Shown piece after piece: positions 12,539 to 31,645 of a DNA stretch of 64,000 nucleotides. The translations under genes were made by a program, and so were the position numbers. Source of the stretch: Acidobacteriota bacterium (GTDB lineage: Bacteria; Actinomycetota; Acidimicrobiia; Acidimicrobiales; Ilumatobacteraceae); the NCBI GenBank assembly GCA_018969685.1, contig JAGWXX010000001.1, forward strand, positions 3,223-67,222. Direction: 5' to 3'. The notes below the pieces were generated by a model, which ran no database searches, was not told the DNA's origin, and worked only from the letters and a program-made list of their open reading frames with translations. The first letter of the stretch is position 1. Each line of letters opens with the position of its first letter.

Positions 12539-13329
12539 CCGGCGGAACACCTTCCGGCATCGCGCACGGCGACGCCGACCTGCTCGAGGTCGCCCGGGCC
12601 TGCGTTGCGCGCGCAGCCGCGGCACTGGCTGCCGCGGACCGGGGCGAGATGGCGCGCATCACCGACCGGCAGCTCGGGGAGCGCGAGGTGAAGCTGGCCG
12701 CCGACGCCGCCCTCGACCGCGTCGTCGCCGGCGCGCTGTCGGGCACCGGCATCCCCGTCGTGAGCGAGGAGGACGCCGCGTCGCACGCCACCGATCCGGC
12801 CGGCACCGCGTGGATCGTCGATCCGCTGGACGGCAGCTACAACTTCTCGCGCGGACTCGGACCCTCGATGATCTCGGTGGCGCTGTGGCGCGCGGGGACT
12901 CCGATCTTCGGCGTCCTGCACGAGGTCGACGCCGGCCGCACCTGGTGGGGCGGCCCCGGCATCCCGTCGCGCGGCGAGCAGGGACCGATCGCCGTGTCGA
13001 CCGAGAACGCGATGCCGCGCTGCACGGTCTGCACGGGCTTCCCCAGCCGCTTTCCCGTCGGCGATGACGGCGCGGTGCAGGCCTACGTGCGCTCGATCGC
13101 GGCGTTCGGCAAGGTGCGCATGCTCGGCTCGGCTGCGGCGTCGCTGCTGCGCGTGGCCCGCGGCAGCGCCGAGGTCTACTTCGAGCGGCACATCATGCTG
13201 TGGGACGTCGCCGCGGGGCTCGCGATCGTCGCCGGCGCGGGCGGCTCGTGGACGGCCGAGCCCCTGGCCTTCGACCGGGGCTGCACCGTGGTCGCCACGA
13301 ACGGGCGCGTCGAGTTCGGCGCCCCGTGA
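12535..13329 (+). CDS. Inositol-monophosphatase-superfamily phosphatase (SuhB/CysQ-like)
   Basis: ATG 12535 (ATGA overlap). Motifs: VVSEED, WIVDPLDGSYNF, LWDVAAGLAIVAGAGG. Confidence 0.8.
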   Translation: MTGGTPSGIAHGDADLLEVARACVARAAAALAAADRGEMARITDRQLGEREVKLAADAALDRVVAGALSGTGIPVVSEEDAASHATDPAGTAWIVDPLDGSYNFSRGLGPSMISVALWRAGTPIFGVLHEVDAGRTWWGGPGIPSRGEQGPIAVSTENAMPRCTVCTGFPSRFPVGDDGAVQAYVRSIAAFGKVRMLGSAAASLLRVARGSAEVYFERHIMLWDVAAGLAIVAGAGGSWTAEPLAFDRGCTVVATNGRVEFGAP

Positions 13330-15128
13330 CCGTGCCGCCCACTCCGCCGCCGCCTACGACCTCGCTGCGCATCGCCGACCGCTTCGACGGCGGCGCCGAC
13401 GTCGCCTGGCGCGAGTTCGGAGACGGACCGCTGCACTCCCTGCCCACGATGCTTCGCCGCGACGACGGCACGGTGCGCGACGCCCTGCTCGACGTGCTGC
13501 ACGCCGCGTCGGAGGTGCGCGTCGGGGGGCGCAGCGTCGTCGAGCACCTGACGATCGGCGACCGGCCGAGCCACTGGTGGATGGGCCTCGTGCACGCCAA
13601 GCGCTGGGGCGAGGTGGGCGTGCTCGCCGACCTCGCCAAGGTGCTGGTGCTCGGCGATCTCGTCGCGTCGCTCGCGCCCGACGAGGTGACCGTGGCGCTC
13701 GACGACCCGTCCGTCGCGGCCGCCGCCGCGGCCACCGTGCGCCGCGCCGCGCCGCGGGCCCGCGTCACCATGACGGGTCCCGAACCCCGCCGGACTCGCG
13801 CCGTGGCGCTGCACCTGCGCGCCGTCGTGCACCTCGTGCGCCAGATGACGTGGCGTCACAGCGCGCCGGGCGCTGGTGTGGACGGAGCGGGGGCGCGAAT
13901 CGCCATGGCCGACTACCTCTTCCGCCTGCCCGCGACGGTGCTGGACGGCGGTGCGTATTCGTCGCGCTACTGGGGTCCGCTCCCGTCCGTCATCGGCGAC
14001 GCGGGTGCGTCGGTCACGTGGCTGCACCGCTTCACGCCCCACGACGGCATCCGGAGGCTGCGCGATGCGCGCCGGCTCGTGCGCCGGCTGAACGCTGCGG
14101 GCGAGCGGCACCACCTGCTGGACGGCGCGACGCCCGCAACGGCGGCGCGCGCCGCGGTGCGCTACGTGCGCCTGCTGCGCGCGTCACGCCGCCTGCACGC
14201 CGCCGCCGGAGCGTTCGTCACGGAGCGGGCCGACCTCCGGCCGATCCTCGGTCGGGAGTGGGACGGGTCGTTCCGCGGCTCGCACGCGATGAGCTGCGCG
14301 CTGCTGACCGAGCGGATCGCGGAGGTGGCCGCATCGCTGCCGCCGCACGCGCGAGGGATCTACATCATGGAGAACCAGCCGTGGGAGTTCGCGCTGCAGC
14401 ACGCATGGCGCAGCGCCGGCCACGGTCCGCTCGTCGGCGTGGCGCACTCCACCGTGCGCCACTGGGACCTGCGCTACCACGGCGCACGACGCGCACCGAT
14501 CGGCTCGCCGGACGGCCCGCCCGCGCCCGACCTCGTCGCGGTGAACGGCCCCGCCGCCCGGGCGGCGCTCGAGGCCAGCGGCATGGACCCGGACCGCATC
14601 GTCGAGGTGGAGGCGCTGATGTACCTCTACCTCGGGTCGCTCGCGCGCAGCGACGACGCGCGCGGCGTGGTGGTGCTCGGCGAACTCGACGCCGTGCACA
14701 CGCAGCGCCTCGTCGACGCCGTCGCCACCGTGCTGCCGCGCACCGATGGATCGGTGCCCGTGACGTTCAAGCCGCACCCGCTGACGCCGTCCTCGGCGTT
14801 CGCCATCCCCGACCGGCGCATCGTGCCGACCACGGCCGACATCGGCGGGCTGCTCGCAGGGGCGCGCTGCACGGTCGTCGGCGCGAGCGGCTCGGCGGTG
14901 CTCGAGTCGGCGTGCCTCGGCATTCCGGTCGTCGCGCTGCTGAACGCCGACGACCTCGAGCTGCTGCCCGTGTCGTCGCACCCGCTGCTCGCGACCGTCG
15001 AGTCGCCCGCCGCGCTCGCCGACGCGGTGGTCGCCGCGCTCGCACGGCCCACGGGCGACCCGTCCACCGTCGACGGCACGTTCCACCTCGACGCGGCGCT
15101 GCCGCGCTGGCGACGGGTGCTCGCGTGA
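13326..15128 (+). CDS. Large hypothetical surface-carbohydrate biosynthesis protein (GT-B-like C-terminus)
   Basis: GTG 13326 (GTGA overlap). About 600 aa. IYIMENQPWEFAL and VVGASGSAVLESACLGIPVVAL motifs. Family not recognised with confidence. Confidence 0.4.
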   Translation: MTVPPTPPPPTTSLRIADRFDGGADVAWREFGDGPLHSLPTMLRRDDGTVRDALLDVLHAASEVRVGGRSVVEHLTIGDRPSHWWMGLVHAKRWGEVGVLADLAKVLVLGDLVASLAPDEVTVALDDPSVAAAAAATVRRAAPRARVTMTGPEPRRTRAVALHLRAVVHLVRQMTWRHSAPGAGVDGAGARIAMADYLFRLPATVLDGGAYSSRYWGPLPSVIGDAGASVTWLHRFTPHDGIRRLRDARRLVRRLNAAGERHHLLDGATPATAARAAVRYVRLLRASRRLHAAAGAFVTERADLRPILGREWDGSFRGSHAMSCALLTERIAEVAASLPPHARGIYIMENQPWEFALQHAWRSAGHGPLVGVAHSTVRHWDLRYHGARRAPIGSPDGPPAPDLVAVNGPAARAALEASGMDPDRIVEVEALMYLYLGSLARSDDARGVVVLGELDAVHTQRLVDAVATVLPRTDGSVPVTFKPHPLTPSSAFAIPDRRIVPTTADIGGLLAGARCTVVGASGSAVLESACLGIPVVALLNADDLELLPVSSHPLLATVESPAALADAVVAALARPTGDPSTVDGTFHLDAALPRWRRVLA

Positions 15129-19940: not shown

Positions 19941-20915
19941 GTGGACCTGCGCGCGCTGTACGCGCCCGCCCACGTGACGCACTGGTCGCTGGCGCGCCAC
20001 GCGCTCGTCGAGGCGCTGCGGTCGTGCGGCGCCACCGGCGGCGCCACCGTGCTGCTGCCGTCGTTCGTGTGCCGCGACCTGCTGGGCGCCGTCGCCGCGG
20101 CAGGCGCCCGCCACGCCTACTACGACGTCGACGAGCGCCTGCAGCCCGGGGACCTGCCCGCCGGCGCGCGCGCAGTGCTGGCCGTCGACTACTTCGGGTT
20201 CGCCGCGCCGATGGAGCCGTTCCGCGACTACTGCCGCGCACAGGGGGCCGTGCTCATCGAGGACAACGCGCACGGACTGCTCAGCCGCGACGCGGACGGC
20301 GCGCTGCTCGGCACGCGCGGCGACCTCGGCATCCTCAGCATGCGCAAGTCGCTCCGCCTCGCCGACGGCGGCGCGCTGCTCGACTGCCGGCCCGGTGCCG
20401 CGCACGACGAGCCCGCGTGCGACCCGGACGCGGGACAGGGGGGCGCGGGCATCCGCGCCGCGGTGGCGTCCGTCGAGCGGCGAACCGGACTTCCCGTGAT
20501 GGCCGCGATGCGGGCGGGCGTCCGTGCCGCACGCCGGGCTGCGGGCCGTCCCGCGCTGCCGTCGTCGGGCGACGAGGACGAGCGGCGCGTGCCCGGCGAC
20601 ACCGCGATCTCGTGCTCGTCGCTCGATCGGCTCTCGCGCGCGGATGCGCCGCACGAGGCCGAGCGCCGCCGCGAGCTGTGGCGCGAGGTGACGGCCGATC
20701 TCGACGGCGCGCGCGGCGTGCGGCTCATCCATGACCGGCTGCCCGACGGGAGCGTGCCGTACGGTGTCGCCGTGCACGCCGACAGCGACGACGTCCTGCG
20801 CGCCGTGGCGCGGCGGCACCGCGCGACCGCGATGACCTGGCCCGCGCTGCCCGCCGACGTGGCGCCGACCGCGCCGGCGCACTACCGCGACGTGAGGCTG
20901 GTGAACTTCCTGTGA
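19941..20915 (+). CDS. DegT/DnrJ/EryC1-like PLP-dependent enzyme, short divergent form
   Basis: GTG 19941. VLLPSFVCRDLLGAV, VLIEDNAHGL and GDLGILSMRKS (candidate PLP lysine). Lacks the usual N-terminal ~40 aa and has an atypical Arg/Ala-rich C-terminal half. Confidence 0.55.
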   Translation: MDLRALYAPAHVTHWSLARHALVEALRSCGATGGATVLLPSFVCRDLLGAVAAAGARHAYYDVDERLQPGDLPAGARAVLAVDYFGFAAPMEPFRDYCRAQGAVLIEDNAHGLLSRDADGALLGTRGDLGILSMRKSLRLADGGALLDCRPGAAHDEPACDPDAGQGGAGIRAAVASVERRTGLPVMAAMRAGVRAARRAAGRPALPSSGDEDERRVPGDTAISCSSLDRLSRADAPHEAERRRELWREVTADLDGARGVRLIHDRLPDGSVPYGVAVHADSDDVLRAVARRHRATAMTWPALPADVAPTAPAHYRDVRLVNFL

Positions 20916-22954
20916 GCAGCCCGCAGCGCTGGACCATGCTCGGCGACGCCGACGAGGCGCGCTGGCAGCGCGCGCTGGACGCGCACCCGGGCGCGCCGGT
21001 GTTCCAGCACTGGGGGTGGGGCGAGTTCCAGCGCGGCGGAGGGTGGACCCCGATGCGCCTCATCAGCGAGCCGCGCGACCCGTCGCGCGAGACCGCGGCG
21101 GTGGCGCAGGTGCTGGGCCGCCGGATGCCGGAGGGCACCATGTTCGCCTGGGTGCCGGGCGGCCCGCTGGTGTCCGAGCCGTCGCGCACCGCCGAGATGA
21201 TGCAGACCCTGCACCGCACCCTGCTCGACGAGTTCGGCCGCTGCTACACGCGCTGCAACGTGATGGCGCCGCACGACAAGGGCACGTTCATGATGACGAA
21301 CGCGTCGATGCGGCGCCCGAACCGCCCGGTGAACAGCCGCTACTCGGTGTTCGTCGACCTCACCGCCCCGCACGACGCGTGGCTGAAGTCGATCCGCAAG
21401 AAGCACCGCTACGAGGTGAAGCGCGCCGAGCACTCGTCGCTCGAGTGGACGTTCTCGACCGACGACCTGTCGCTCAGCCTGCTGGCCGACGTGCTGCGCC
21501 AGATGGTCGAGGAAAAGCGCATCGACGTGCCGATCTACTCGTTCCCGCAGCTGGCCGCGATGCGCGGTGCGCTCGGCGACTCGATGACCGTGGTCGTCGG
21601 CCTGCACGATGGCCAGCCCGCCGCCGGCGCGCTCGTGCTGTCGCTGGGCGGCCGTTCGCACTACCTCGCCGCCGGCTCGACGCACGCAGGCCGCAAGGTG
21701 AGCGCGTCGTACGCGATGATGTCGCGCCTCTACCAGCACCTGCAGACGAAGGGGCTCACGACGCTCGACCTCGGCGGCATCGCGCCGAGCAACCGCCGCG
21801 CGGTGGGCGTCGACCACTTCAAGCTGGGATTCGGCGGCGAGGTGGTCGAGTACCTCGGCGAATGGGAGATCGGCTCGGTGCCGGCGCGGCTGCTCGGCAA
21901 CGCCGCCGTGCGCCGCATCATCCGCTCGAGCCGGCCCGCGAAGCCCGAGAAGACCGAGCCGCAGTCGACCGAGTGGTCGACGTGGGAGGGAACCGACCGC
22001 GAGTGGGACGAGGGGCTCATGCACCTGCCCCACTATTCCGTGTACCAGAGCAGCCGCTGGGGCGAGCACCGCAAGGCGTTCGGCTGGCGGCCGATCAAGC
22101 TCGTCGCGCGGCGCAACGGCACCGTGGCGACGATGGTGCAGGTGCAGACGCGCCGCTACTCGCGACTGACGGGCCTGGCGTGGGCGCCGGGCGGACCGGT
22201 GGGCGACGTCGCATCGTGCGGCCCGCTGCTGCGCCGCGCGATCGCGCAGGAGATGGGCGTCCGGTTCGTGCTGCACCGCCTGAACCTCACGCGTCCGCAC
22301 AGCGACGAGGACGCGTTCCGCCTCGAGCGGCTGGGGTGGTCGACGAGCCGCGTGCCGATCCTCTCGGGCCTCAGCCTCGTGTACGACCTGGTGGGGCCCG
22401 ACCGCGAGGCGGCGCTGACGAAGAACTGGCGCCACAACCTGCGGCGCGCGCAGAAGCGGCCGATCACCAGCTACCTGTGGACCAATCCGTCGGCCGACGA
22501 GATGAAGACGGTGTACGACTCGATGCACGCCTACAAGGGCATCGAGCACCTCGCCGGCCAGAACACCGTCGACTCGATGGGCTCGCTGATCGGGCTGTTC
22601 GGCGGGGACTGCCTGGTCGTGCGCTGCGACGACGAGGACGGGAGCTTCCTCGCGCTGCGTGGCGCGCTGGTGATGGGCGACTGGGCGTGGGACACGTTTG
22701 CCGCGTCGACCCCGCAGGGCCGCAAGCTCTACGCCTCGTACCACGCGTTCTGGACGCTCATGGAGTGCTGCCGCGAGCGCGGCGTGCGCAACTACGACAT
22801 GGGCGGCATCGACCCCATCGGCAACCGCGGCGTCTACGACTTCAAGCAGGGCACCGGCGCGGTGCCCACGCGGTTCCTCGGCGAGTGGGAGTTCTCGCAG
22901 CCCCGGCTGCTCGGCCTCATCGCCGGCCAGCGCATCGCCAAGAGGCTCGGCTGA
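20912..22954 (+). CDS. Tandem-duplicated FemAB/CelD-like acyl(aminoacyl)transferase, two modules in one 680-aa protein
   Basis: GTG 20912 (GTGA overlap). The two halves repeat the same motif series: FQHWGWGEFQRGGGWTP / YQSSRWGEHRKAFGWRP, IRKKHRYEVKRAEH / KNWRHNLRRAQKR, LDLGGIAP..FKLGFGGE..LGEWE / YDMGGIDP..FKQGTGAV..LGEWE. Confidence 0.65.
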   Translation: MSSPQRWTMLGDADEARWQRALDAHPGAPVFQHWGWGEFQRGGGWTPMRLISEPRDPSRETAAVAQVLGRRMPEGTMFAWVPGGPLVSEPSRTAEMMQTLHRTLLDEFGRCYTRCNVMAPHDKGTFMMTNASMRRPNRPVNSRYSVFVDLTAPHDAWLKSIRKKHRYEVKRAEHSSLEWTFSTDDLSLSLLADVLRQMVEEKRIDVPIYSFPQLAAMRGALGDSMTVVVGLHDGQPAAGALVLSLGGRSHYLAAGSTHAGRKVSASYAMMSRLYQHLQTKGLTTLDLGGIAPSNRRAVGVDHFKLGFGGEVVEYLGEWEIGSVPARLLGNAAVRRIIRSSRPAKPEKTEPQSTEWSTWEGTDREWDEGLMHLPHYSVYQSSRWGEHRKAFGWRPIKLVARRNGTVATMVQVQTRRYSRLTGLAWAPGGPVGDVASCGPLLRRAIAQEMGVRFVLHRLNLTRPHSDEDAFRLERLGWSTSRVPILSGLSLVYDLVGPDREAALTKNWRHNLRRAQKRPITSYLWTNPSADEMKTVYDSMHAYKGIEHLAGQNTVDSMGSLIGLFGGDCLVVRCDDEDGSFLALRGALVMGDWAWDTFAASTPQGRKLYASYHAFWTLMECCRERGVRNYDMGGIDPIGNRGVYDFKQGTGAVPTRFLGEWEFSQPRLLGLIAGQRIAKRLG

Positions 22955-22956
22955 CC

Positions 22957-24084
22957 GTGCTGCTCTACGCGGTCCAGGCCGCGTTGCTGGGCGCACTCGC
23001 GTGGATCCTCGTCGCGCCCCACTGCCGTCGGCGACTCGTGCCAACCGCAGCCGTGGCGCTGTGGGCGGTGGGCGTGACGGCGATCTTCCGCCGCTACGGC
23101 GCCGACGGGCTGCTCGATTTCTACTCGAACGACCAGCGCTACCACCAGTTCCTCGTCGGCAAGCTGGAGTGGGGCGGCAGGCCGCTGCTGTTCAGCGACA
23201 TCGAGGAGCGCCGCTACACGTACCTCGGCTGGGCCTGGCTCGGCCGCGCCGTCGGCTTCGACGAGGTGCTCGTGCTGAAGTTCGTGGCGCTGGTGTGCTC
23301 GCTCGTCACCTACCGCATCGTCGAGCGCGAGTTGGACACGTCGGGTGCCGGCGCGAAGCTGCGCTGGGTGTGGCTCACCACCGGCCCGGTGATGCTGTTC
23401 TTCAGCCTGCTCGCATTGCGCGAGACGATGCTGGCCATGTCACTGACCTACCTGTTCGTGGGGCGCAACCCGTCGCTGCGGCTGGCGGCGTTCGTGAACG
23501 CGTTCATCCTGCGGCCGCACCTGGGCATCGCGCTCGCCGCGGGCTGGGGGCTGGTGTGGGCGGTGCGGCGCATCCCTGCCGCGTGGCACTCGGTGCGCCT
23601 CGCCGTCACGGCGGTGACCTCGGCGCTGCTGGGGGCGTGGCTGCTCGCCGTGATCGGCCGCGTGGTGGGCTCGTGGACGCCACCGGAGTCCCCATTTCCG
23701 CCCGACAAGGACGCGGTGTTCGGCATCCTCGCCAACCTGACCGGGCTGCAGTTCCTGCTGGTCGACACCGTGACGATCGAGCGGTCGCTGACGAACCTCG
23801 TCGTCACCCGGGCGCTCTTCTTCGAGACCATCGCGGTGCCGACGCTGTTCGCGCTGTCGCTGTTCGTGCCGTTCGTGCGCTTCGAGCGCCTGCGGCTGTG
23901 GGTGCTGGCCAGCTTCGTGATCTACCTGGGCGTCATCACCGGCACCGACTTCACGTCGTTCCGCCAGACCCTGCCGTTCATGCCGACGATGGGGCTGCTG
24001 GTGGTGCACGGGTGGCTGGAGCTGCGCGAGGGACGAAGCGACGCGGCACCTTCGTCACCCCACCAACTCGTCGCGCAGCGCTGA
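22957..24084 (+). CDS. Polytopic membrane protein, O-antigen polymerase/ligase-like (Wzy-type candidate)
   Basis: GTG 22957. About 10 hydrophobic segments with one larger loop. Last gene of the glycan operon. Function assigned by context only. Confidence 0.45.
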   Translation: MLLYAVQAALLGALAWILVAPHCRRRLVPTAAVALWAVGVTAIFRRYGADGLLDFYSNDQRYHQFLVGKLEWGGRPLLFSDIEERRYTYLGWAWLGRAVGFDEVLVLKFVALVCSLVTYRIVERELDTSGAGAKLRWVWLTTGPVMLFFSLLALRETMLAMSLTYLFVGRNPSLRLAAFVNAFILRPHLGIALAAGWGLVWAVRRIPAAWHSVRLAVTAVTSALLGAWLLAVIGRVVGSWTPPESPFPPDKDAVFGILANLTGLQFLLVDTVTIERSLTNLVVTRALFFETIAVPTLFALSLFVPFVRFERLRLWVLASFVIYLGVITGTDFTSFRQTLPFMPTMGLLVVHGWLELREGRSDAAPSSPHQLVAQR

Positions 24085-25509
24085 CATCCTGCTCGGGCCC
24101 GCCCGGAGGTCGCCCTCGCGCCGTGCGACGCGCTCGTACGACCGCCACTCCTCCGTGACCGCGGACGAGTCCCCGCGCGACGCGTGGGCGCGCATCCGCA
24201 GCTCCACCAGCCCCTCGTGGTTGCGGAGCACCGACAGTCCGCGCCCCGTCGCCCAGAACACGTCGTCGATGTCGCCGTGCTCCAGCGCCGCACGGGCCAG
24301 CGCCTCGGTCGCACGGACCACGAGCAGCACCAGCGACGACGTGATCCCCTCCGTGTCCGGCCACAGGTAGCCCGAGCCGGCGAACGGCAGGTCGCGCACC
24401 CGACCCAGTGCCGTCCGCAATTCGTCGCCGTCATCCGGCGAGCGTCGGAACCGCACGAGCGCGGACTCCAGCAGCTCGGCGTCCGACACGACGCTCGGCG
24501 CGAGCCGCAGGCGGTCGTCCGGCGATCGGTCGAGCAGCAGCCGGCCGTCGCTGGTTCCGAGCGACCTGCGCAGATCCGACACGACGTTGTTGAACGTCGC
24601 GCCCCGCACCTCGGCATCCCACATGGCCGTGCGCGCAGCCGATCGTGTCGGCCGGTCCCGGTGGGTGACCAACCACGCCAGCAGTTCCAAGGATCGACCG
24701 CGGGGAAACGTCACCGGCGCGCCGGTCGCGTCCTCCACCTCGACCGGGCCGAGTACGCGGACGACGAAGGTCGGTTGGACCGCCGCGCGCTCGTACCACG
24801 TCGTCGGCACCAATGGACGGGATGCCTCGACGATCAGCCCTGCGGTGCCGTCGTCGTGCGGAACCGCCGGCGCATCCTCGGCCGGGGTCGGGCCCGCCAC
24901 CACCCAGTCGCCGGCGAACGGCATCGCCCCGGAGACGTCTACTCCTGCGTGCCGCGCACCCCTGTCCGCGGATGCAAGTGTGGCAGTGAGGCGCAGCGAC
25001 GCCGCCCGGCTCAATGGCGGCACCACCGCGTCGAGATCGGCGGCGGCGAGTCGCACATTGCGTGCGAGCCCGACCGCACCGACCACCGCTGCAGCACCCG
25101 TCACCGTCGACACGATGGCCACGGGGATCTCGACGGATCCTCGGACCGCCACCGGAGCGTGCGGCGCCGGGGCGTCGTGGATCTGGCCGCCGCCGGGGAC
25201 CGCGACGCACGCCCACACCGCCGCGACGAACACCGAGGGGGCGCCCGCAGCAGACACGGTCGTGGCCTGCGGCGACCTGCCACCGAGTCGGGCGGCGACT
25301 GCGGCAAGGGTGCCGACCGCGAACCACACCCACGCGATCCAGACGACCGCCACCACGGAGCCACCGACGATGCCCGCCACGTCGAAGGGGACCCGCGCCG
25401 CGGCGAGATCCGCAACGGTCGCACGCGGGCCGAGCCCGCCCACCACGAGCACCGCCGGCGTTCCCGCCAGGAACGTCGCCCCGGACACCACCACCAGTGG
25501 CGGTGTCAC
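24055..25509 (-). CDS. Membrane-anchored SARP-type regulator (about 4 TM helices + OmpR-like winged helix + BTAD)
   Basis: GTG 25509 (GTGA overlap with upstream tadE-like stop). Hydrophobic N-terminal ~170 aa, then VVRVLGPVEV...RSLELLAWLV...VVSDLRRSL winged helix and a BTAD-like helical repeat (GLVELRMRAHASRGD). Confidence 0.7.
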   Translation of the reverse strand: MTPPLVVVSGATFLAGTPAVLVVGGLGPRATVADLAAARVPFDVAGIVGGSVVAVVWIAWVWFAVGTLAAVAARLGGRSPQATTVSAAGAPSVFVAAVWACVAVPGGGQIHDAPAPHAPVAVRGSVEIPVAIVSTVTGAAAVVGAVGLARNVRLAAADLDAVVPPLSRAASLRLTATLASADRGARHAGVDVSGAMPFAGDWVVAGPTPAEDAPAVPHDDGTAGLIVEASRPLVPTTWYERAAVQPTFVVRVLGPVEVEDATGAPVTFPRGRSLELLAWLVTHRDRPTRSAARTAMWDAEVRGATFNNVVSDLRRSLGTSDGRLLLDRSPDDRLRLAPSVVSDAELLESALVRFRRSPDDGDELRTALGRVRDLPFAGSGYLWPDTEGITSSLVLLVVRATEALARAALEHGDIDDVFWATGRGLSVLRNHEGLVELRMRAHASRGDSSAVTEEWRSYERVARREGDLRAGPSRMSALRDELVG

Positions 25510-25871
25510 GGCTCGCTCACCGGCTCGGCGGAACGCTCCGCGGCGACCCGTCGCTCCTCCACGCCGAGCAGGGCCAGCAACGGGAGTCGCACGACGATCG
25601 TCGTCCGGACGGTCACGCGCCGCTCCGACGCAGTCACCTCCCCGTCGATGCCATGGCCGGACAGGTACGCGCGCGCGGCGGAGAGCGCGGCGGGACGGTC
25701 GACCGACGGCGAGCCGCTGCGCAGCGACTCGAGGTGCTGCACCCCCGCGCGCGCCGCGTTCTCCGCGTGGTCGCCCGCCGCCACGGCGGCCGCCACGACG
25801 CGTCCCCCATCGACCGCCAGTGCCGTGCACGCGACGAACCCCATTGCGAGCGCCACCACGAGCGCGGACAC
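25506..25871 (-). CDS. TadE-like pseudopilin (Rv3654c-type)
   Basis: GTG 25871 preceded by GGAGGAAGG SD. N-terminus EEGSVSALVVALAMGF hydrophobic helix typical of TadE/TadF-like proteins. Confidence 0.65.
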   Translation of the reverse strand: MSALVVALAMGFVACTALAVDGGRVVAAAVAAGDHAENAARAGVQHLESLRSGSPSVDRPAALSAARAYLSGHGIDGEVTASERRVTVRTTIVVRLPLLALLGVEERRVAAERSAEPVSEP

Positions 25872-25897
25872 CGAACCTTCCTCCGTCCCCCGGTGCG

Positions 25898-26296
25898 TCA
25901 CCCCGCCCTCCACAGGTCGATCACCTCCGTCGATCGCGCCTCGAGCCGGCGCGTCCGCACCCCGAGCAGCTCCAGTCCCGCGATCCGGACCGTGCATTCG
26001 ATCTCGACCATGACGGCCCGCACCGACGAGTCGCCGTCGACTGCGACGTTCACCAGGGGCTCGGTGCACGACGAGCCGGAGCCGACGAGGTCGTCCCGTA
26101 CCGCGCGCTCGCCGACGTCCTCCATGCGGTCGGTGCGCACCATCGACGCCGCGCGCGCCCCCTGGTCGGCCGCGTGCCGCAACTGCACGAGCGCCTCCGC
26201 CGAGCGGCCCGCGTGCACCACCGACATCACCAGCACGACGAGCAATGGCGCCAGGAGCACCATCTCGACCGTCGCGCTTCCCCGTTCGGCCGTCAC
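25898..26296 (-). CDS. TadE-family pilus assembly protein
   Basis: GTG 26296 (GTGA overlap with upstream stop). ERGSATVEMVLLAPLLVVLVM signature N-terminus. Confidence 0.75.
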   Translation of the reverse strand: MTAERGSATVEMVLLAPLLVVLVMSVVHAGRSAEALVQLRHAADQGARAASMVRTDRMEDVGERAVRDDLVGSGSSCTEPLVNVAVDGDSSVRAVMVEIECTVRIAGLELLGVRTRRLEARSTEVIDLWRAG

Positions 26297-26706
26297 CGTT
26301 CGTCCTCGTACCGGTACCGCTCGAGGGGCTCGCGGACGGAACGGACCGCGGTCCGCGGGAGGAACGGGGCGATCGGCGGGACGTCGATCCACACCGACAC
26401 CTCGATCCACTCCCCATCGACGAGCGCCACCGGCTCGCGCGCCGTCCGCGAGGACAGGCTGACGACGGTCGCCGACGCGACCGCCACCGCCTCCTCGCCG
26501 CTGCCGCCACGCGCGGCCCCTGCTGCCGCGCCGCGGGACGCGGCGACCGCCGCGACCTGCGCCCCGTGCAGGAACGCCGCCGCGTGCACCGCGATCATCA
26601 GCACCGCGAAGACCAGCGGAACGGCGATCACCGTTTCGGCGGATGTCTCGCCGCGCTCGACGGACGGCTCAGCCAAGGTCGAGGGAATTCGCCTTGTCAC
26701 GGACAC
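26293..26706 (-). CDS. TadE-family pilus assembly protein
   Basis: ERGETSAETVIAVPLVFAVLMI N-terminus. Start uncertain: GTG 26706 or 26700, or TTG 26676, which would overlap flp by only 8 nt. Confidence 0.65.
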   Translation of the reverse strand: MSVTRRIPSTLAEPSVERGETSAETVIAVPLVFAVLMIAVHAAAFLHGAQVAAVAASRGAAAGAARGGSGEEAVAVASATVVSLSSRTAREPVALVDGEWIEVSVWIDVPPIAPFLPRTAVRSVREPLERYRYEDER

Positions 26707-26854
26707 GGTCGGTGATGGTGGCTGCGACGGCGATGGCGAGCGCCACGAGGGCCGCCGCCATCACGATGGTCGTGGCACTCACCTCTCCGCGCTCGACGTC
26801 GTGCTCGGCGGAGGCGCGGAGGCGGATCCAGAGGTACCGGGCGATGTGCTGCAT
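26669..26854 (-). CDS. flp: Flp-family type IVb prepilin (61 aa)
   Basis: ATG 26854 with GAAGGGA SD. Charged leader, then ERG/EVSATTIVMAAALVALAIAVAA hydrophobic core. Lies between tadC and the tadE genes. Confidence 0.7.
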   Translation of the reverse strand: MQHIARYLWIRLRASAEHDVERGEVSATTIVMAAALVALAIAVAATITDRVRDKANSLDLG

Positions 26855-26899
26855 GTCATGGTTCCCTTCGTGTGGTTGATGGTGCGATGTGTGGATCGA

Positions 26900-27703
26900 T
26901 CACGTCCCGACGACGAGGTGCGACAGCGCCGGATAGACGATGAGCGCGAGAAACCCGACGAAGACGAGCACCATCGGGATCCCCATCCGCTCCGTCGCCG
27001 CGTGCGCCGACGCCTCGATCTCGTCGCCGATCCGCGCCCGCATCGCCTCGGACCGCGCAACGAGCGACTCGCGGATCCGCGCACCGTGCGAGCCGGCCAG
27101 ATCGATGCTGTCCGCAAGCTCCACCAGCTGGTCGATGCCGAGGCGCCGCCCGAGCGCGCGCAATTCCTGCCACGGCGAACGTCCCGTGTCGCGGGACCGT
27201 GCCAGGGACTCGCGGAGCAGCACGAAGGCTTCCGAGCCGCCGGCCCGGGCCGAGGCGGTGAGGGCGGTTTCCAGTCCCGCACCACCTGCGAGCAGCACCG
27301 TCGTCAGGTCGAGGAAGCTCGACAGCGCGTGGACGAACTGCCGCCTCCGCCGGAGCGCGCTGCGGCGCACCGCGGCGTCGGGCGCGACAAACCCCGCCAC
27401 GGAGCCGACGAGGGTCGCAAGGGTGACGAGCGGCAACGACGGTCCGGTGCCGGCCACGCGGAGCAGGACGGCGACCGCCACCACCGACGCTGCGCCGACG
27501 ATCGCGCCGAGGACCTGGCGCACGACGAGATCGTCCGCCACCAGACCGAGCACCTCCAGGTCGGCGCGCCGGCGCCTCAGTGCGGACCTCGCAACCCGCT
27601 CGCGGGTGCGAGCGACCGCGAACGGGATCTCCTCCGTCGCACCTCGCGCCAGGACGGCGAGACCGAGGCCCGCCCCCGCGCCGGCCACCACTGCACCGAT
27701 CAC
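26900..27703 (-). CDS. tadC: Type II secretion system F-family membrane protein (TadC)
   Basis: GTG 27703 (GTGA overlap). T2SSF-like cytoplasmic domain flanked by TM helices (MGIPMVLVFVGFLALIVYPAL at the C-terminus). Confidence 0.8.
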   Translation of the reverse strand: MIGAVVAGAGAGLGLAVLARGATEEIPFAVARTRERVARSALRRRRADLEVLGLVADDLVVRQVLGAIVGAASVVAVAVLLRVAGTGPSLPLVTLATLVGSVAGFVAPDAAVRRSALRRRRQFVHALSSFLDLTTVLLAGGAGLETALTASARAGGSEAFVLLRESLARSRDTGRSPWQELRALGRRLGIDQLVELADSIDLAGSHGARIRESLVARSEAMRARIGDEIEASAHAATERMGIPMVLVFVGFLALIVYPALSHLVVGT

Positions 27704-28530
27704 GATCGCGCCCCGACGAAGCGTTCCGGCACGTCGACCCGGGACATGCGGGCCATCCACCACAGCGAGACCGCGAACACGCCGAGGATCCCCGTGAGCA
27801 CCACCTGCCCCGTCGCCGTCGAATAGGGCCCGAGGTACTCGCGGTTGAAGGCGGCGAGGCCCACGACGAACGTCGCGACCACCGCTGCGACGATGCGCAC
27901 CGAGCTGCGGGTGCGCGCCCGCCCCACCCAGATCCGTCCTCGCATGCGGCTCTCCTCCCGTGCGCACTGGGCGACTCGCCCGAGGAGCTGGCGGAGGTCG
28001 CGCGCCTCGTGGTCGGCCGCAGTGGCCAGCGCCGCCACGACGAAGTCGGCGGTCGGGTGGTCGACGTCGTCGGCGAAGCGCCGCATCGCGTCCGACAGCC
28101 CGCGGTACGGCACGGTCGCAACGAGGCGCTGCACCGCGGGTGCGATCTCCGCGGGCGCACGACCGCTCGTCGCCGCCACCGCCTCCTCCAATCCGCGGGC
28201 GCCGGCGAGCGTGTCGCGGATCTGCTCGGTCCACGACGCGATCGCCTCCACGAGTGCTCCCTCGTCGCGCGCACTCTGGCGGTGACGGCCGATACCCGGC
28301 GCAAGTGCCGTCGCGACGCCGGCCGCGACGGCCAGCACCGGCCACCGCACCGCCACCCAGGTGACAGCCACCGCGGACGACACGAGGACGACACGGGCCG
28401 GTCCGGGCCGGCTCCGGTCCGTCCGTGCCACGAGACCCACGAGCGACGAACGTCCACGGAGCGCACCGAGCACGACGAGCAGGCCGAGGCCGGCCACCGA
28501 CCCGGCGAGTGCTGCGACGAGCTGGCTCAC
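27700..28530 (-). CDS. tadB: Type II secretion system F-family membrane protein (TadB)
   Basis: GTG 28530 (GTGA overlap with tadA stop). N-terminal TM, central soluble domain, C-terminal TM pair. Confidence 0.8.
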   Translation of the reverse strand: MSQLVAALAGSVAGLGLLVVLGALRGRSSLVGLVARTDRSRPGPARVVLVSSAVAVTWVAVRWPVLAVAAGVATALAPGIGRHRQSARDEGALVEAIASWTEQIRDTLAGARGLEEAVAATSGRAPAEIAPAVQRLVATVPYRGLSDAMRRFADDVDHPTADFVVAALATAADHEARDLRQLLGRVAQCAREESRMRGRIWVGRARTRSSVRIVAAVVATFVVGLAAFNREYLGPYSTATGQVVLTGILGVFAVSLWWMARMSRVDVPERFVGARS

Positions 28531-29813
28531 GACGCGTGCGCCCGTCCGAGGCCGTGCTCGAGCAGCAGGTCCCGCGTCGCGCGCCGCAACGGGTAGCCGG
28601 ATCCGTCGGGGCCCACCACCTCGTTGGTCGCCACCATCGCCCCGTCGGCGTCGACGACCTCGCGCACCGACTGCACGCGACGCACGCCGTCGCGCACTCC
28701 GAGGTGCACGACGAAATGGACGGCACCGGCGAGCATCAGGTTGACCGTCTCGATCGGGAGACCCGTGTCCGCCATGGACACGTAGGCCGCGAGCTTGGCG
28801 AGCGCGGTCCTCGACGAGTCGGCGTGCATCGTGCACATCGATCCGTCGTTGCCCTGGCTCATCGCGAGGAGCATCGGGAAGGCCTCCGCGCCCCGTACCT
28901 CGCCGACGATGACCCGATCGGGATCCATCCGCAGCGCCATCCGCGCGAGATCGGAGAGCGTGACCTCGCCCCGTCCCTCGATGTTCGGGGGCCGCGACTG
29001 CAGTGCGTCGTGGTCGGGATGCCGGTCGGCGAAGCGGTCGATGGCCAGCTCGTAGGAGTCCTCTATCGTCACGATCCGCTCGGTGCGCGGCACCTCGTTG
29101 ATCAAGGCACGGAGCAGCGTCGTCTTCCCCGTCCCGGTGCCGCCCGCGATGACGAGGTTCCGGCGCGCCCGCACCGCCGATGCGAGCAGGGAGGACGTCC
29201 GTCGGTCGAGCATGCCGAGCGCGACGAGTTCGTCGAGGGACGACAGTTCGTACCGGTGGCGGCGGACGACGAGGCTCGGCCGGCGGGACACCTCCATCAC
29301 GGCGAACAATCGGGAGCCGTCGGGGAGCTGCACGTTCACGTCCGGAGATCCCGCGTCGAAGCGGCGCTCGGAGGCGCCCAGCCGTGTCGCGGCCCGCCGG
29401 ACCAGGTCGATGAGCTCCGCATCCGAGTCGACGATCGGCTCCCGCTCCTCGCGGCGGCCGTCGCGGAGCCGCACCCACACCGGCTCGCACCCGCGCACGT
29501 GCACGTCGCCGACGTCGGGATCGTCGAGGAGCACCTGCAGGCGCCCCAACCCGACGACCGACGCGACGGCATCGTCGACGATGGCCGCCTCGAGCGACGG
29601 TTCGAGCTCCGGCGAGCCGTCGCGGCGGCGACGCTGATTGATGGTCGCAATCTCGGCGACGGCGGCGAGCCGCGCGATCTCGCGCTCCTCACTCGGGTCG
29701 AGGCCGCGTCCCGCGAGTTCATGGCGCGCCACCACCTCGTCGCTGAGGACGTCGGCGATCCGCGCCCGAACCGCCGCGGCCTCCGCGGTCGCGCCAGGCC
29801 GCCGCCGCGTCAC
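28527..29813 (-). CDS. tadA: Tad/CpaF secretion ATPase
   Basis: GTG 29813 (GTGA overlap). Walker A IAGGTGTGKTTLLRAL, RIVTIEDSYEL, RVIVGEVRGAEA, GSMCTMHA motifs. Confidence 0.9.
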   Translation of the reverse strand: MTRRRPGATAEAAAVRARIADVLSDEVVARHELAGRGLDPSEEREIARLAAVAEIATINQRRRRDGSPELEPSLEAAIVDDAVASVVGLGRLQVLLDDPDVGDVHVRGCEPVWVRLRDGRREEREPIVDSDAELIDLVRRAATRLGASERRFDAGSPDVNVQLPDGSRLFAVMEVSRRPSLVVRRHRYELSSLDELVALGMLDRRTSSLLASAVRARRNLVIAGGTGTGKTTLLRALINEVPRTERIVTIEDSYELAIDRFADRHPDHDALQSRPPNIEGRGEVTLSDLARMALRMDPDRVIVGEVRGAEAFPMLLAMSQGNDGSMCTMHADSSRTALAKLAAYVSMADTGLPIETVNLMLAGAVHFVVHLGVRDGVRRVQSVREVVDADGAMVATNEVVGPDGSGYPLRRATRDLLLEHGLGRAHAS

Positions 29814-30481
29814 GGTGCCACCACGGTCGCCACCCGGATCGATCCGGCACCCGCCAGCTGCAGCGCGAGGCGCGCCGTGGCCACGAAGGTGAGGATTGCG
29901 TCGTCGGTCCCGTCGTCGCGGTGCTGCACCGCCCACACGAGGACGGGCTCGTCGACCATCAGTGGAGGTCGCGCTTCGAGCATCGTCGGGTCGGGCGCGA
30001 CCGCGAGCAGGACGCGGTCTCCGGGGGCGAGGTCGGGCGGGAACGAACCTGCCTCGACCAGCGCGGGGACGAGCACGTCGTCGGGCCCGAGCGCCGGCTG
30101 CGCCGCCACCATGACCCGAGGAATCGGATCACCCGGGGCGATCGGCCCCCTCGTACTGCCACCCACGAGGTCGCCGGCATCCTCCGCCGACACGAACGCA
30201 CCCGCGATCGCCCGCGGCACCGCCACGGCGACGAGGTCGCCGGACTCGATCGGTCGACCGGCCTCGAGCCTCCGCGAGGAACCCGCCACCATCACGGCCT
30301 CGGACCCCGCCCGTTGCAGCCAGAGCGACCCGAGCACCCCCGCGGCGACGAGCGCGGCGCCGAGGACGAGTTCGGACCGTCGGCGCGCGTGACGCGGGGG
30401 CGCGACCTCCCCGTCGCCGTCGTATGCCGGTGCGGACGCCGTCCGACCCTCCACTCCCCGACGAACCTGCGCTCGAACCAT
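29810..30481 (-). CDS. SAF-domain pilus assembly protein (CpaB/RcpC-like), membrane anchored
   Basis: ATG 30481 with AGGAGG SD. One N-terminal TM (LVLGAALVAAGVLGSLWL) followed by a SAF-like segment (RRLEAGRPIESGDL). First gene of the Tad operon. Confidence 0.65.
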   Translation of the reverse strand: MVRAQVRRGVEGRTASAPAYDGDGEVAPPRHARRRSELVLGAALVAAGVLGSLWLQRAGSEAVMVAGSSRRLEAGRPIESGDLVAVAVPRAIAGAFVSAEDAGDLVGGSTRGPIAPGDPIPRVMVAAQPALGPDDVLVPALVEAGSFPPDLAPGDRVLLAVAPDPTMLEARPPLMVDEPVLVWAVQHRDDGTDDAILTFVATARLALQLAGAGSIRVATVVAP

Positions 30482-30646
30482 CGCGGTGCCTCCTGTCGTC
30501 CCGCGTCGCGGAACGGATCCGATGTGGAGATCGGGGCGAGTCCACTGGAAGCAGTACCTGACGCGCGAACCACGACCTCGCACGTGCGGTGCACCACCGG
30601 CACCACTCACCAGCCGCCCCGCGCCGCCCCGTAGCCTTCACTCGTC

Positions 30647-31645
30647 ATGACCGGCACCGCCACGCCCCCCGCCGCGCGCCCCTCGGCCAACGAGCCCTGC
30701 TGGTGCGGCAGCGGCCGCAAGTACAAGCGCTGCCACCGTCCGCTCGAGGGTCGGGTGCTGCCCGGCACGGTCAGCCCCATGCGCAGCGTGCCCGACCACA
30801 TCGCCAAGCCGCCCTATGCCGCCACCGGCACCGTCGCCCGCATGCCCGAGTCGGCGGTGAAGACTCCCGACGTCATCGCGCGCATGCGCATCGCCGGTGC
30901 GACGGCCGCGGAGGTGCTGCGGCTCGCGGGCGAGTTCGTGCGCCCCGGCATCACCACCGACGCCATCGACGAGTACGTCCACGCCCTGTGCATCGAGCGC
31001 GGCGCGTACCCGAGCCCGCTCAATTACTCGGGCTACCCGAAGAGCGTCTGCACCTCGGTCAACGAAGTCATCTGCCACGGCATCCCCGACTCGCGCGTGC
31101 TGGAGGAGGGCGACATCGTCAACCTCGACGTCACCTGCTACGTCGGCGGCGTGCACGGCGACACCAACGCCACCTTCGCGGTCGGCGAGATCGACGACGA
31201 GAGCCGGCACCTCATCGCCGTCACCGAGGAGTGCACGTGGCTCGGCATCGAGGCCGTGCAGCCCGGCAAGCCGCTCAGCGAGATCGGCCGGGCCATCGAG
31301 GCCCGCGCCAAGCGCGACCACCTCGGCGTGGTGCGCGCCTTCATCGGCCACGGCATCGGCGAGCAGTTCCACACCGACATCCAGGTGCTGCACTACTACG
31401 ACCCGCGCAACTCCACCGTCATGCGCCCCGGCATGACCTTCACGATCGAGCCGATGATCACCCTGGGCACCTGGCAGCACCGCATGTGGGACGACGACTG
31501 GACCGCCGTCACCGCCGACGGCAGGAGGACCGCGCAGTTCGAGCACACCGTGCTCGTCACCGACGACGGGGTGGAGGTGCTGACCGGGGGCCCCGGTGCC
31601 GCGTCGCCGTGCGCCCCGTGGGCGCGGGGCGGCGCCACGGCATGA
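30647..31645 (+). CDS. map: Type I methionine aminopeptidase with N-terminal SEC-C zinc-binding motif
   Basis: [13 protein letters not shown] near the N-terminus. Metal ligands in [30 protein letters not shown]. Confidence 0.9.

Follow-up and report, generated by a model that had tools for sequence, protein, structure and literature searches.

We analysed a 64,000-nucleotide (nt) stretch of DNA, hereafter the window, from a freshwater member of the Ilumatobacteraceae (assembly GCA_018969685.1, contig JAGWXX010000001.1, positions 3,223 to 67,222 of the forward strand) and concentrated on the gene that closes its Tad pilus operon. We observed that this gene encodes a protein of 484 amino acids (aa) in which four N-terminal transmembrane (TM) helices are followed, after a linker, by a C-terminal module with the fold of the SARP activators, an OmpR-type winged helix joined to a BTAD-like helical domain. 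The protein is a rare, minimal member of a family of membrane SARP-like proteins encoded at the ends of tad operons. A preliminary description of the locus had made the SARP-like gene the last of the operon, with a GTGA overlap on the final tadE-like gene, and the start and stop coordinates bear this out. The gene runs on the minus strand from a GTG start (25509-25507) to a TGA stop (24057-24055), and the GTG overlaps the TGA (25508-25506) of the tadE-like gene in a shared GTGA (25509-25506). An identical GTGA junction couples six successive gene pairs in the tad operon. The coordinates of all features are collected in Table 1.

Gene structure and linkage to Tad operons

Third-position GC (GC3) tracks the SARP-like frame from 24055 to ~25400, and above 25509 the frame of the tadE-like gene takes over. 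Because of this switch, we conclude that a longer open reading frame (ORF) of 591 aa is not used. Homologues start at the residue equivalent to the GTG start, and W57, W60 and W99 are invariant in the aligned N-terminal region. Since GC3 follows the frame and the homologues begin there with conserved tryptophans, the hydrophobic N-terminus is coding. The contrary possibility that the preliminary description had raised against its own reading, a non-coding hydrophobic stretch, was thereby ruled out.

The genes upstream, all on the same strand, encode the Tad ATPase, platform and pilin-like proteins listed in Table 1. Neither a TadZ/CpaE-type gene nor a prepilin peptidase gene was seen in the operon (window positions 26900-30481).

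We next assessed how far the arrangement is conserved by scanning one genome per species. This gave 63 related loci, almost all from Ilumatobacteraceae or other Acidimicrobiia; the window's proteins were placed in these loci by tblastn, and gene order was judged only where the upstream DNA sufficed. Linkage to tad genes was found in nearly all of the 63 loci with enough upstream DNA, and the start of the SARP-like gene often abuts the last tadE-like gene. Two Tad subtypes can be told apart. In the first, the order is a divergent map gene, the SAF gene, tadA, tadB, tadC, flp, three tadE-like genes and the SARP-like gene; in the second, in which TadA is ~34-41% identical, the SARP-like gene lies ~4 kb after tadC. 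Weaker matches elsewhere in the class have tadA, tadC or tadE upstream on the same strand in 9 of 12 fetched loci, and in other classes of the phylum tad genes lie upstream in all four loci with enough upstream sequence. On a plasmid of Streptomyces anulatus, the annotation (PGAP) reads SAF, CpaF, two T2SS-F proteins, a small ORF, two TadE/TadG proteins and a TadG-related gene, and then a 1,164-aa homologue. The linkage between tad and SARP-like genes, whose absence from other genomes the preliminary description had named as grounds for giving up its reading, is thus conserved well beyond the family of the window genome.

Presence and absence follow the same pattern. The SARP-like gene was matched, nearly always strongly, in 21 of 26 other genomes of the same family. 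The TadA-like match of the five genomes without it is only a paralogue at 37-40% identity and, because of this, the Tad locus and the SARP-like gene appear, as judged from these matches, to be absent together. The window genome itself (1.96 Mb, 92% complete) holds a single copy of the membrane SARP-like family. Its second TadA copy, on another contig, is 39% identical and is similar to the paralogue of the five genomes that lack the gene; this TadA/CpaF-like ATPase lies on contig C61 at ~13051-13968, and no SARP-like gene was detected elsewhere in the genome.

The base composition of the locus was also compared within the genus. Two genomes listed under the same genus (loci L090 and L091) have 50-53% GC in the tad locus, against about 72% in the window, and their TadA is only 61-63% identical. 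The high GC content of the 1.96-Mb window genome stands out among its listed kin.

Table 1 Features of the SARP-like gene, its operon and its surroundings (window coordinates).
Feature	Position	Strand	Basis or remark
Membrane SARP-like gene, 484 aa	24055-25509	-	Four-TM anchor, linker and SARP-like winged-helix and BTAD module; ORF, translation, coding-frame GC3
Membrane domain, residues 1-155, four TM helices	25045-25509	-	Hydropathy, charge counts, AlphaFold helices, invariant W57/W60/W99, LysM in the equivalent loop of relatives
PLSR juxtamembrane motif and low-confidence linker, residues 156-244	24778-25044	-	Alignment gaps against the 560-680-aa and ~1,100-aa forms
OmpR-type winged helix, residues 245-340	24490-24777	-	AlphaFold and Foldseek (EmbR, AfsR), invariant helix-turn-helix residues, weak Trans_reg_C in long relatives
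BTAD-like all-helical domain, residues 341-484	24058-24489	-	Foldseek; Pfam BTAD in relatives
TadE-like gene (last)	25506-25901	-	Pfam TadE/Tad, NCBIfam TadE-like, partly below cut-off; GTGA-joined
TadE-like gene	25898-26296	-	As above
TadE-like gene	26293-26706	-	As above
Flp-like prepilin, 61 aa (…ERGEVSATTIVMAAALVALAIAV…)	26669-26854	-	Sequence; 59-82% identical in related loci
tadC	26900-27703	-	Pfam T2SSF
tadB-like ORF	27700-28530	-	No Pfam hit; assigned by position only
tadA	28527-29813	-	Pfam T2SSE
SAF-domain gene	29810-30481	-	Pfam SAF, below cut-off
15-mer ACACATCGCACCATC	26878-26892	-	23 nt before flp (ATG); putative operator, or part of an RNA leader
TTCCAG-N17-CCACATCGG	30522-30550	-	46 nt before the start codon (ATG) of the first tad gene; aligns with TTCCAC…ACACATCG of related loci
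Polytopic membrane-protein gene	22960-24084	+	No Pfam hit; within the glycan locus 20912-24084
3'-end overlap, 30 nt	24055-24084	.	SARP-like gene and the converging membrane-protein gene

The SARP-like module and its membrane anchor

AlphaFold modelled residues 245-484 with high confidence as two short strands, three helices and a wing, followed by seven helices, and the pLDDT of the C-terminal half is mostly 85-96. The elements of the winged helix are strands 248-251 and 257-260 and helices 273-282, 289-297 and 306-317, the last of which (TFNNVVSDLRRSLG) is the putative recognition helix. The six best Foldseek matches in the PDB were EmbR (2fez, 2ff4) and the SARP domain of AfsR (8k60, 8hvr). 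These matches had E values of 3.5e-6 to 2.3e-5 over 251-258 aligned columns at 18-23% identity and covered both subdomains, with a TM-score of 0.67-0.68 on the AfsR length. The matches ranked below them were generic TPR proteins at E>0.04.

Searches by sequence gave a different picture. Pfam and NCBIfam, queried with the whole protein and with its C-terminal half, returned no family for the SARP-like module even at E<=10. PDB sequence searches, by phmmer with the single sequence and with a 24-member profile, also left the module unmatched, the sole profile hits being noise from the TM region (DHHC20). At E<=1e-3 the window protein has 369 homologues. The family profile reaches, at 1e-12 to 1e-43, proteins of ~1,100 aa that belong to other families of the class, and relatives of this length with a family-profile match of 1e-43 score up to 37.6 bits against Pfam BTAD (cut-off 22.1). 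Trans_reg_C is weak in the long relatives (E 0.006-0.12) and stands in the correct order with BTAD. A search of the window genome found no canonical BTAD protein. Because sequence methods miss the module while structure and intermediates recognise it, we consider it a divergent SARP and not a classical one. The preliminary description had spoken of a classical SARP module, an OmpR-type winged helix with BTAD; the matches to EmbR and AfsR uphold the fold, and the word classical has to be given up for a divergent branch that Pfam misses. The overall architecture it proposed, a polytopic anchor and then a SARP-type winged-helix and BTAD fold, is one on which hydropathy, AlphaFold and Foldseek agree.

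Hydropathy analysis gave four hydrophobic segments, at residues 5-23, 47-65, 85-103 and 130-148, and the AlphaFold helices 3-23, 44-75, 83-102 and 136-155 coincide with them, in line with the earlier estimate of about four N-terminal TM helices. The linker between these helices and the SARP-like module was likewise expected, at a length of ~70 aa; it is present and measures ~90 aa (residues 156-244). Most of it is modelled with low confidence, and the pLDDT falls below 50 at residues 182-218. Judging from the alignments, the linker is the remnant of a middle domain of ~150-400 aa that is present in relatives.

The orientation of the protein in the membrane can be read from its relatives. Charge counts over 24 family members show basic residues at the N-terminus and after TM2 and TM4 and an acidic loop 3, following the positive-inside rule. 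The family profile aligns residues 4-139 (TM1-3) to the N-terminus of a 1,211-aa open frame, and the C-terminus of the same frame matches the SARP-like module. The order after TM3 in these long proteins is one to three LysM domains (Pfam E 1.3e-13), a Pro-rich stretch, TM4, the basic motif RRLR…RHRR, ~400 cytoplasmic residues and finally the SARP-like module. Loop 3 of the window protein (residues 104-129) is equivalent to the LysM loop of these proteins. LysM binds peptidoglycan and, because it occupies the equivalent loop, loop 3 should lie outside and the C-terminal module in the cytoplasm. We infer a topology with the N-terminus inside, loop 3 outside and the C-terminus inside, and these alignments and the charge pattern support the cytoplasmic location of the module that DNA binding would require.

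As seen by cryo-electron microscopy, AfsR contacts DNA through W74, which ends helix 2, and through R87, T88, S91, R92, R94 and K95 of the recognition helix (PMC10936776). We matched the helix-turn-helix (HTH) residues of the window protein to these positions by motif and not by a computed structural alignment. In the motif alignment TAMW(297)…TFNNVVS(311)DLR(314)R(315)SLG, W297 corresponds to W74, S311 to S91, R314 to R94 and R/K315 to K95, and N307 and N308 fall on R87 and T88. Across the family alignment R284, R289, R293, W297, N308, S311 and R314 are invariant, and helix 2 (RPTRSAARTAxW), with its three arginines, is near-invariant. As far as alignment can tell, these features are compatible with DNA binding of a different specificity; they are not proof of it.

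The 484-aa protein is small for its family. A search of 1.84 billion cluster representatives returned 1,343 proteins at E<=1e-10, of which 415 reach E<=1e-30. Most of these are 800-1,200 aa long and match at their C-terminus, and a length of ~480-485 aa was found in only 2 of the best 150. The clade of the window protein comprises forms of 484-486 aa that are 64-94% identical and have neither LysM nor the middle domain. Ilumatobacteraceae forms of 560-680 aa carry a middle domain of ~150-250 aa, and both of its flanks (PLSR… and GDW…EASRP) persist in the short clade. In a tree of the SARP-like module the short clade is sister to forms of 563-567 aa (support 87/84), and a second short lineage (480-483 aa) branches outside. 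The separation of the two short lineages in this tree implies at least one loss of the middle domain, and probably two. With other family members the SARP-like module shares 42-57% identity, the TM domain 17-28% and the linker 12-24%. The window protein thus has the homologous N-terminal TM domain, the C-terminal winged helix and BTAD domain and the last place in the tad operon that characterise the family, and lacks the extracytoplasmic LysM and the cytoplasmic middle domain, having a loop 3 of 26 aa and only the linker at the respective positions. By these comparisons, the core retained in the minimal form is the TM domain plus the SARP-like module.

The middle domain of a 656-aa relative (P0055, residues ~165-410) was modelled as an alpha/beta domain. 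Its top Foldseek match was a chain of the ESX-3 (type VII secretion) core complex at E 5.4e-4, with poor superposition (TM-score 0.17-0.30). A profile search of the PDB with this domain from longer relatives found nothing, and an FtsK/EccC-like identity is unconfirmed. Publicly, family members are named 'hypothetical protein' or 'LysM peptidoglycan-binding domain-containing protein', or bear COG-derived SARP labels (JGI). No description of the family turned up in the literature when SARP or BTAD was searched together with Tad, pilus, LysM or anchoring in the membrane.

Candidate regulatory sites and the possible role of the protein

We observed a candidate regulatory sequence of the CACACAT type upstream of both flp and the first tad gene. 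In the window, the 15-mer ACACATCGCACCATC is single even with two mismatches allowed, and its 12-mer core occurs once in the 1.96-Mb genome, at the tad locus. Five other genomes (L001, L007, L017, L025, L057) have the identical 15-mer 40-70 nt ahead of their first tad gene, and three more have a two-mismatch variant there. The shorter ACACAT precedes flp by 38-84 nt in 16 of 26 loci, and 14 of 18 loci have it ahead of the first tad gene, whereas its frequency on the coding strand of the 63 loci is 0.13 per kb; it is also the most enriched hexamer of the tadC-flp spacers. These counts overstate independence because the loci are related.

SARPs activate transcription from direct repeats phased 11 or 22 bp that overlap the -35 region. 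The box-aligned sites have a (G/C)CAC or CCGC element ~21 nt upstream at both tad upstream regions, and some flp spacers, for example GCACATTTGGCACACTCGCACACACATTTGAG, hold a third copy between half-site and box. Repeats one or two helical turns apart are known SARP binding sites (PMC10936776). Occurrence of the box goes with the recognition-helix motif: loci encoding TF(N/T)NVVS have it, and loci encoding TF(A/S)NVVS(D/E)ARR lack it. No clear common box was seen in the loci with the A/S-type helix, only CA/CC-rich leaders. An Rfam scan of the operon found no known RNA family.

The same 15-mer is shared between the flp leader of the window genome (71% GC) and the first-gene leaders of genomes with 50-53% GC. 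In the latter loci the sequence after ACACATCGCACCATC is GGCGGATTGATTGCGATCAAGGGGG, with a short inverted repeat (TTGAT…ATCAA), and the element could be an operator or an element of the 5' untranslated region. Elsewhere in the window genome a second site, ACACATCGC, lies on contig C81 at ~14225-14270 (GCACATCCCCGCGGCACACATCGCGCCC), directly before the in-frame ATG of an ORF without a Pfam domain. No further close copy of the box was seen in the genome, and this one may mark a second target or have arisen by chance.

On balance, we lean towards the view that the protein is a membrane-tethered, one-component activator of the SARP type that acts on tad and flp, with the membrane domain as its input; DNA binding, activation and the nature of the signal are steps that we infer. 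The four N-terminal TM helices would anchor the protein and leave the C-terminal winged helix and BTAD domain facing the cytoplasm. If it works as AfsR and other SARPs do, this module would recognise phased direct repeats in the tad promoters and bring RNA polymerase to them; the CACACAT-type boxes that precede flp and the first tad gene are the best candidates for such sites. Activation of this kind would amount to positive autoregulation, since the SARP-like gene closes the operon and is translationally coupled to it. The membrane domain is the likely input because it is the only other part retained in the minimal form. The signal might arise when this domain touches the TadB/C platform, or Flp or pseudopilins that are not yet assembled, much as PilS senses PilA; the long relatives have a wall-binding LysM loop in addition. 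Put in its most specific form, the four-helix domain would sense unassembled Flp/pseudopilins or the state of the TadB/C platform and switch the SARP-like module onto the tad/flp promoters via CACACAT-type repeats. We offer this version tentatively, as possible and not as probable. If true, it would constitute a single-polypeptide feedback circuit that takes inventory of the pilus, to which the LysM and secretion-ATPase-like domains of the large family members would be accessories.

Several observations weigh against an activator of this kind. The window protein itself fails both Pfam models, Trans_reg_C (PF00486) and BTAD (PF03704). Where AfsR has its base-reading R92, the family varies between Asp, Glu and Gly; the net charge of the HTH is only about +2, and the BTAD part is acidic. 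A scan of positions 23500-31000 detected no terminator-like site and, more to the point here, no sigma-70-like promoter. The correlation between recognition helix and box goes back to only one or two splits between clades, CA-rich sequence is general among flp leaders, and the box of the window, just 23 nt before the flp ATG, may be part of the transcript, as an RNA leader. Literature searches found no experiment on any family member. Finally, the GTGA coupling to pseudopilin genes fits a stoichiometric part of the pilus machine equally well.

This last point leads to the strongest alternative, that the protein is a structural or assembly part of the monoderm Tad machine. Its TM domain would then sit in the TadB/C platform, and the TPR-like BTAD domain and the winged helix would serve as protein-binding surfaces that leave DNA unbound, for example by docking TadA in a locus without TadZ. 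Such a part would suit a gene that is always last in the operon, coupled to pseudopilin genes and absent together with the Tad locus, as well as the lack of a TadZ/CpaE-type gene in the locus. The wall-binding LysM of the long relatives, their middle domain with an ESX-3 core chain as its best structural match and the failure of the SARP-like proteins to conserve the base-reading Arg of AfsR point in the same direction. However, the SARP-like module, with its invariant Arg/Ser/Trp signature in the HTH, is the best conserved part of the protein and was kept when LysM and the middle domain were lost, and HTH positions would not be expected to persist in a fold that serves purely as a scaffold. 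A machine part also leaves the conserved box at two tad upstream regions unexplained. We regard this role, including the docking of TadA, as rather unlikely.

The preliminary description had suggested that the protein regulates the converging glycan locus. It had based this on a 30-nt overlap of the 3' ends, and the overlap is real, with the plus-strand TGA at 24082-24084 and the minus-strand stop at 24055-24057. At least nine related loci (L001, L006, L007, L011, L014, L022, L025, L026, L033) likewise have this membrane-protein gene and a FemAB/GNAT gene beyond the end of the Tad operon and converging on it, a synteny of glycan locus and pilus operon that recurs in many Ilumatobacteraceae. 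However, the glycan genes directly adjoin the Tad operon only in the window, L007 and L053, and in most related loci they are 2.6-4.2 kb from the SARP-like gene. As the overlap is not a conserved feature, we rejected it as a sign of control over the glycan locus, a reading that finds no support. An overlap of 3' ends also supplies no promoter, the CACACAT candidate site was not seen at the glycan locus, with the exact 15-mer absent elsewhere in the window at up to two mismatches, and plasmid-borne distant relatives are linked to Tad genes but not to this glycan locus. Regulation of the glycan locus or of other genes is, in our estimation, improbable.

That the 484-aa form is a decaying, non-functional remnant left by the loss of LysM and the middle domain is more improbable still: the short form is rare and the genome small (1.96 Mb), but the ORF is intact with coding-frame GC3 throughout, all family-invariant residues are retained, six same-length members (64-94% identity) keep 75-97% identity in the SARP-like module, and a second short lineage exists.

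Relation to known regulators and pilus systems

To our knowledge, SARPs have been known almost only as soluble activators of antibiotic clusters, and the regulation and assembly of Tad pili in Gram-positive Actinomycetota are poorly understood. The family places a SARP-fold protein within Tad operons from freshwater Acidimicrobiia to Streptomyces plasmids, as a conserved part of Tad systems that annotation pipelines name only as hypothetical or as a 'LysM protein'. The 484-aa form, which is the core of the family (membrane domain plus SARP-like module), indicates which family domains are dispensable and is the simplest construct for work on topology, DNA binding and pilin contact.

Among known proteins, the closest in fold are the SARP activators (AfsR, 8HVR/8K60; EmbR, 2FEZ; ActII-ORF4; DnrI). 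They have the same two-part module, an OmpR-type winged helix followed directly by BTAD, and they too are actinobacterial; their W…S-x-L-R-R/K signature of helices 2 and 3 is kept in the window protein. SARPs are soluble and carry the module at the N-terminus, whereas here it is C-terminal (residues 245-484) behind four TM helices. The window gene is linked to a pilus operon and not to a biosynthetic cluster, the base-reading residues differ, and there is no NB-ARC/TPR or FHA extension. We conclude that the window protein is a divergent architectural variant of the SARP kind and not a kind of its own.

The closest in architecture are the long LysM proteins of other Tad operons, such as WP_331758255.1 from the Streptomyces anulatus plasmid. 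They share the homologous TM1-3 domain, the SARP-like module and the last position after tadE/tadG-like genes. At ~1,000-1,200 aa they add LysM repeats on the outside and a cytoplasmic middle domain of ~400 aa, both of which the window protein lacks.

Two further systems offer parallels in mechanism. ToxR, TcpP, CadC and PsaE are OmpR-type winged-helix activators that act while anchored in the membrane, and several of them control pilus or fimbrial operons. In these proteins an N-terminal winged helix precedes a single TM helix and a C-terminal periplasmic sensor, and BTAD is absent; the window protein has the reverse order and four TM helices, so that the parallel is an analogy of mechanism and not homology. 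In the PilS-PilR system, type IVa pilin is controlled by intramembrane sensing of the pilin; PilS, a histidine kinase, depends for this on a regulator that is a protein of its own. By analogy, a polytopic membrane domain encoded with the pilus genes could sense unassembled pilin and feed back on pilin transcription, with the difference that here sensor and DNA-binding module would form a single polypeptide.

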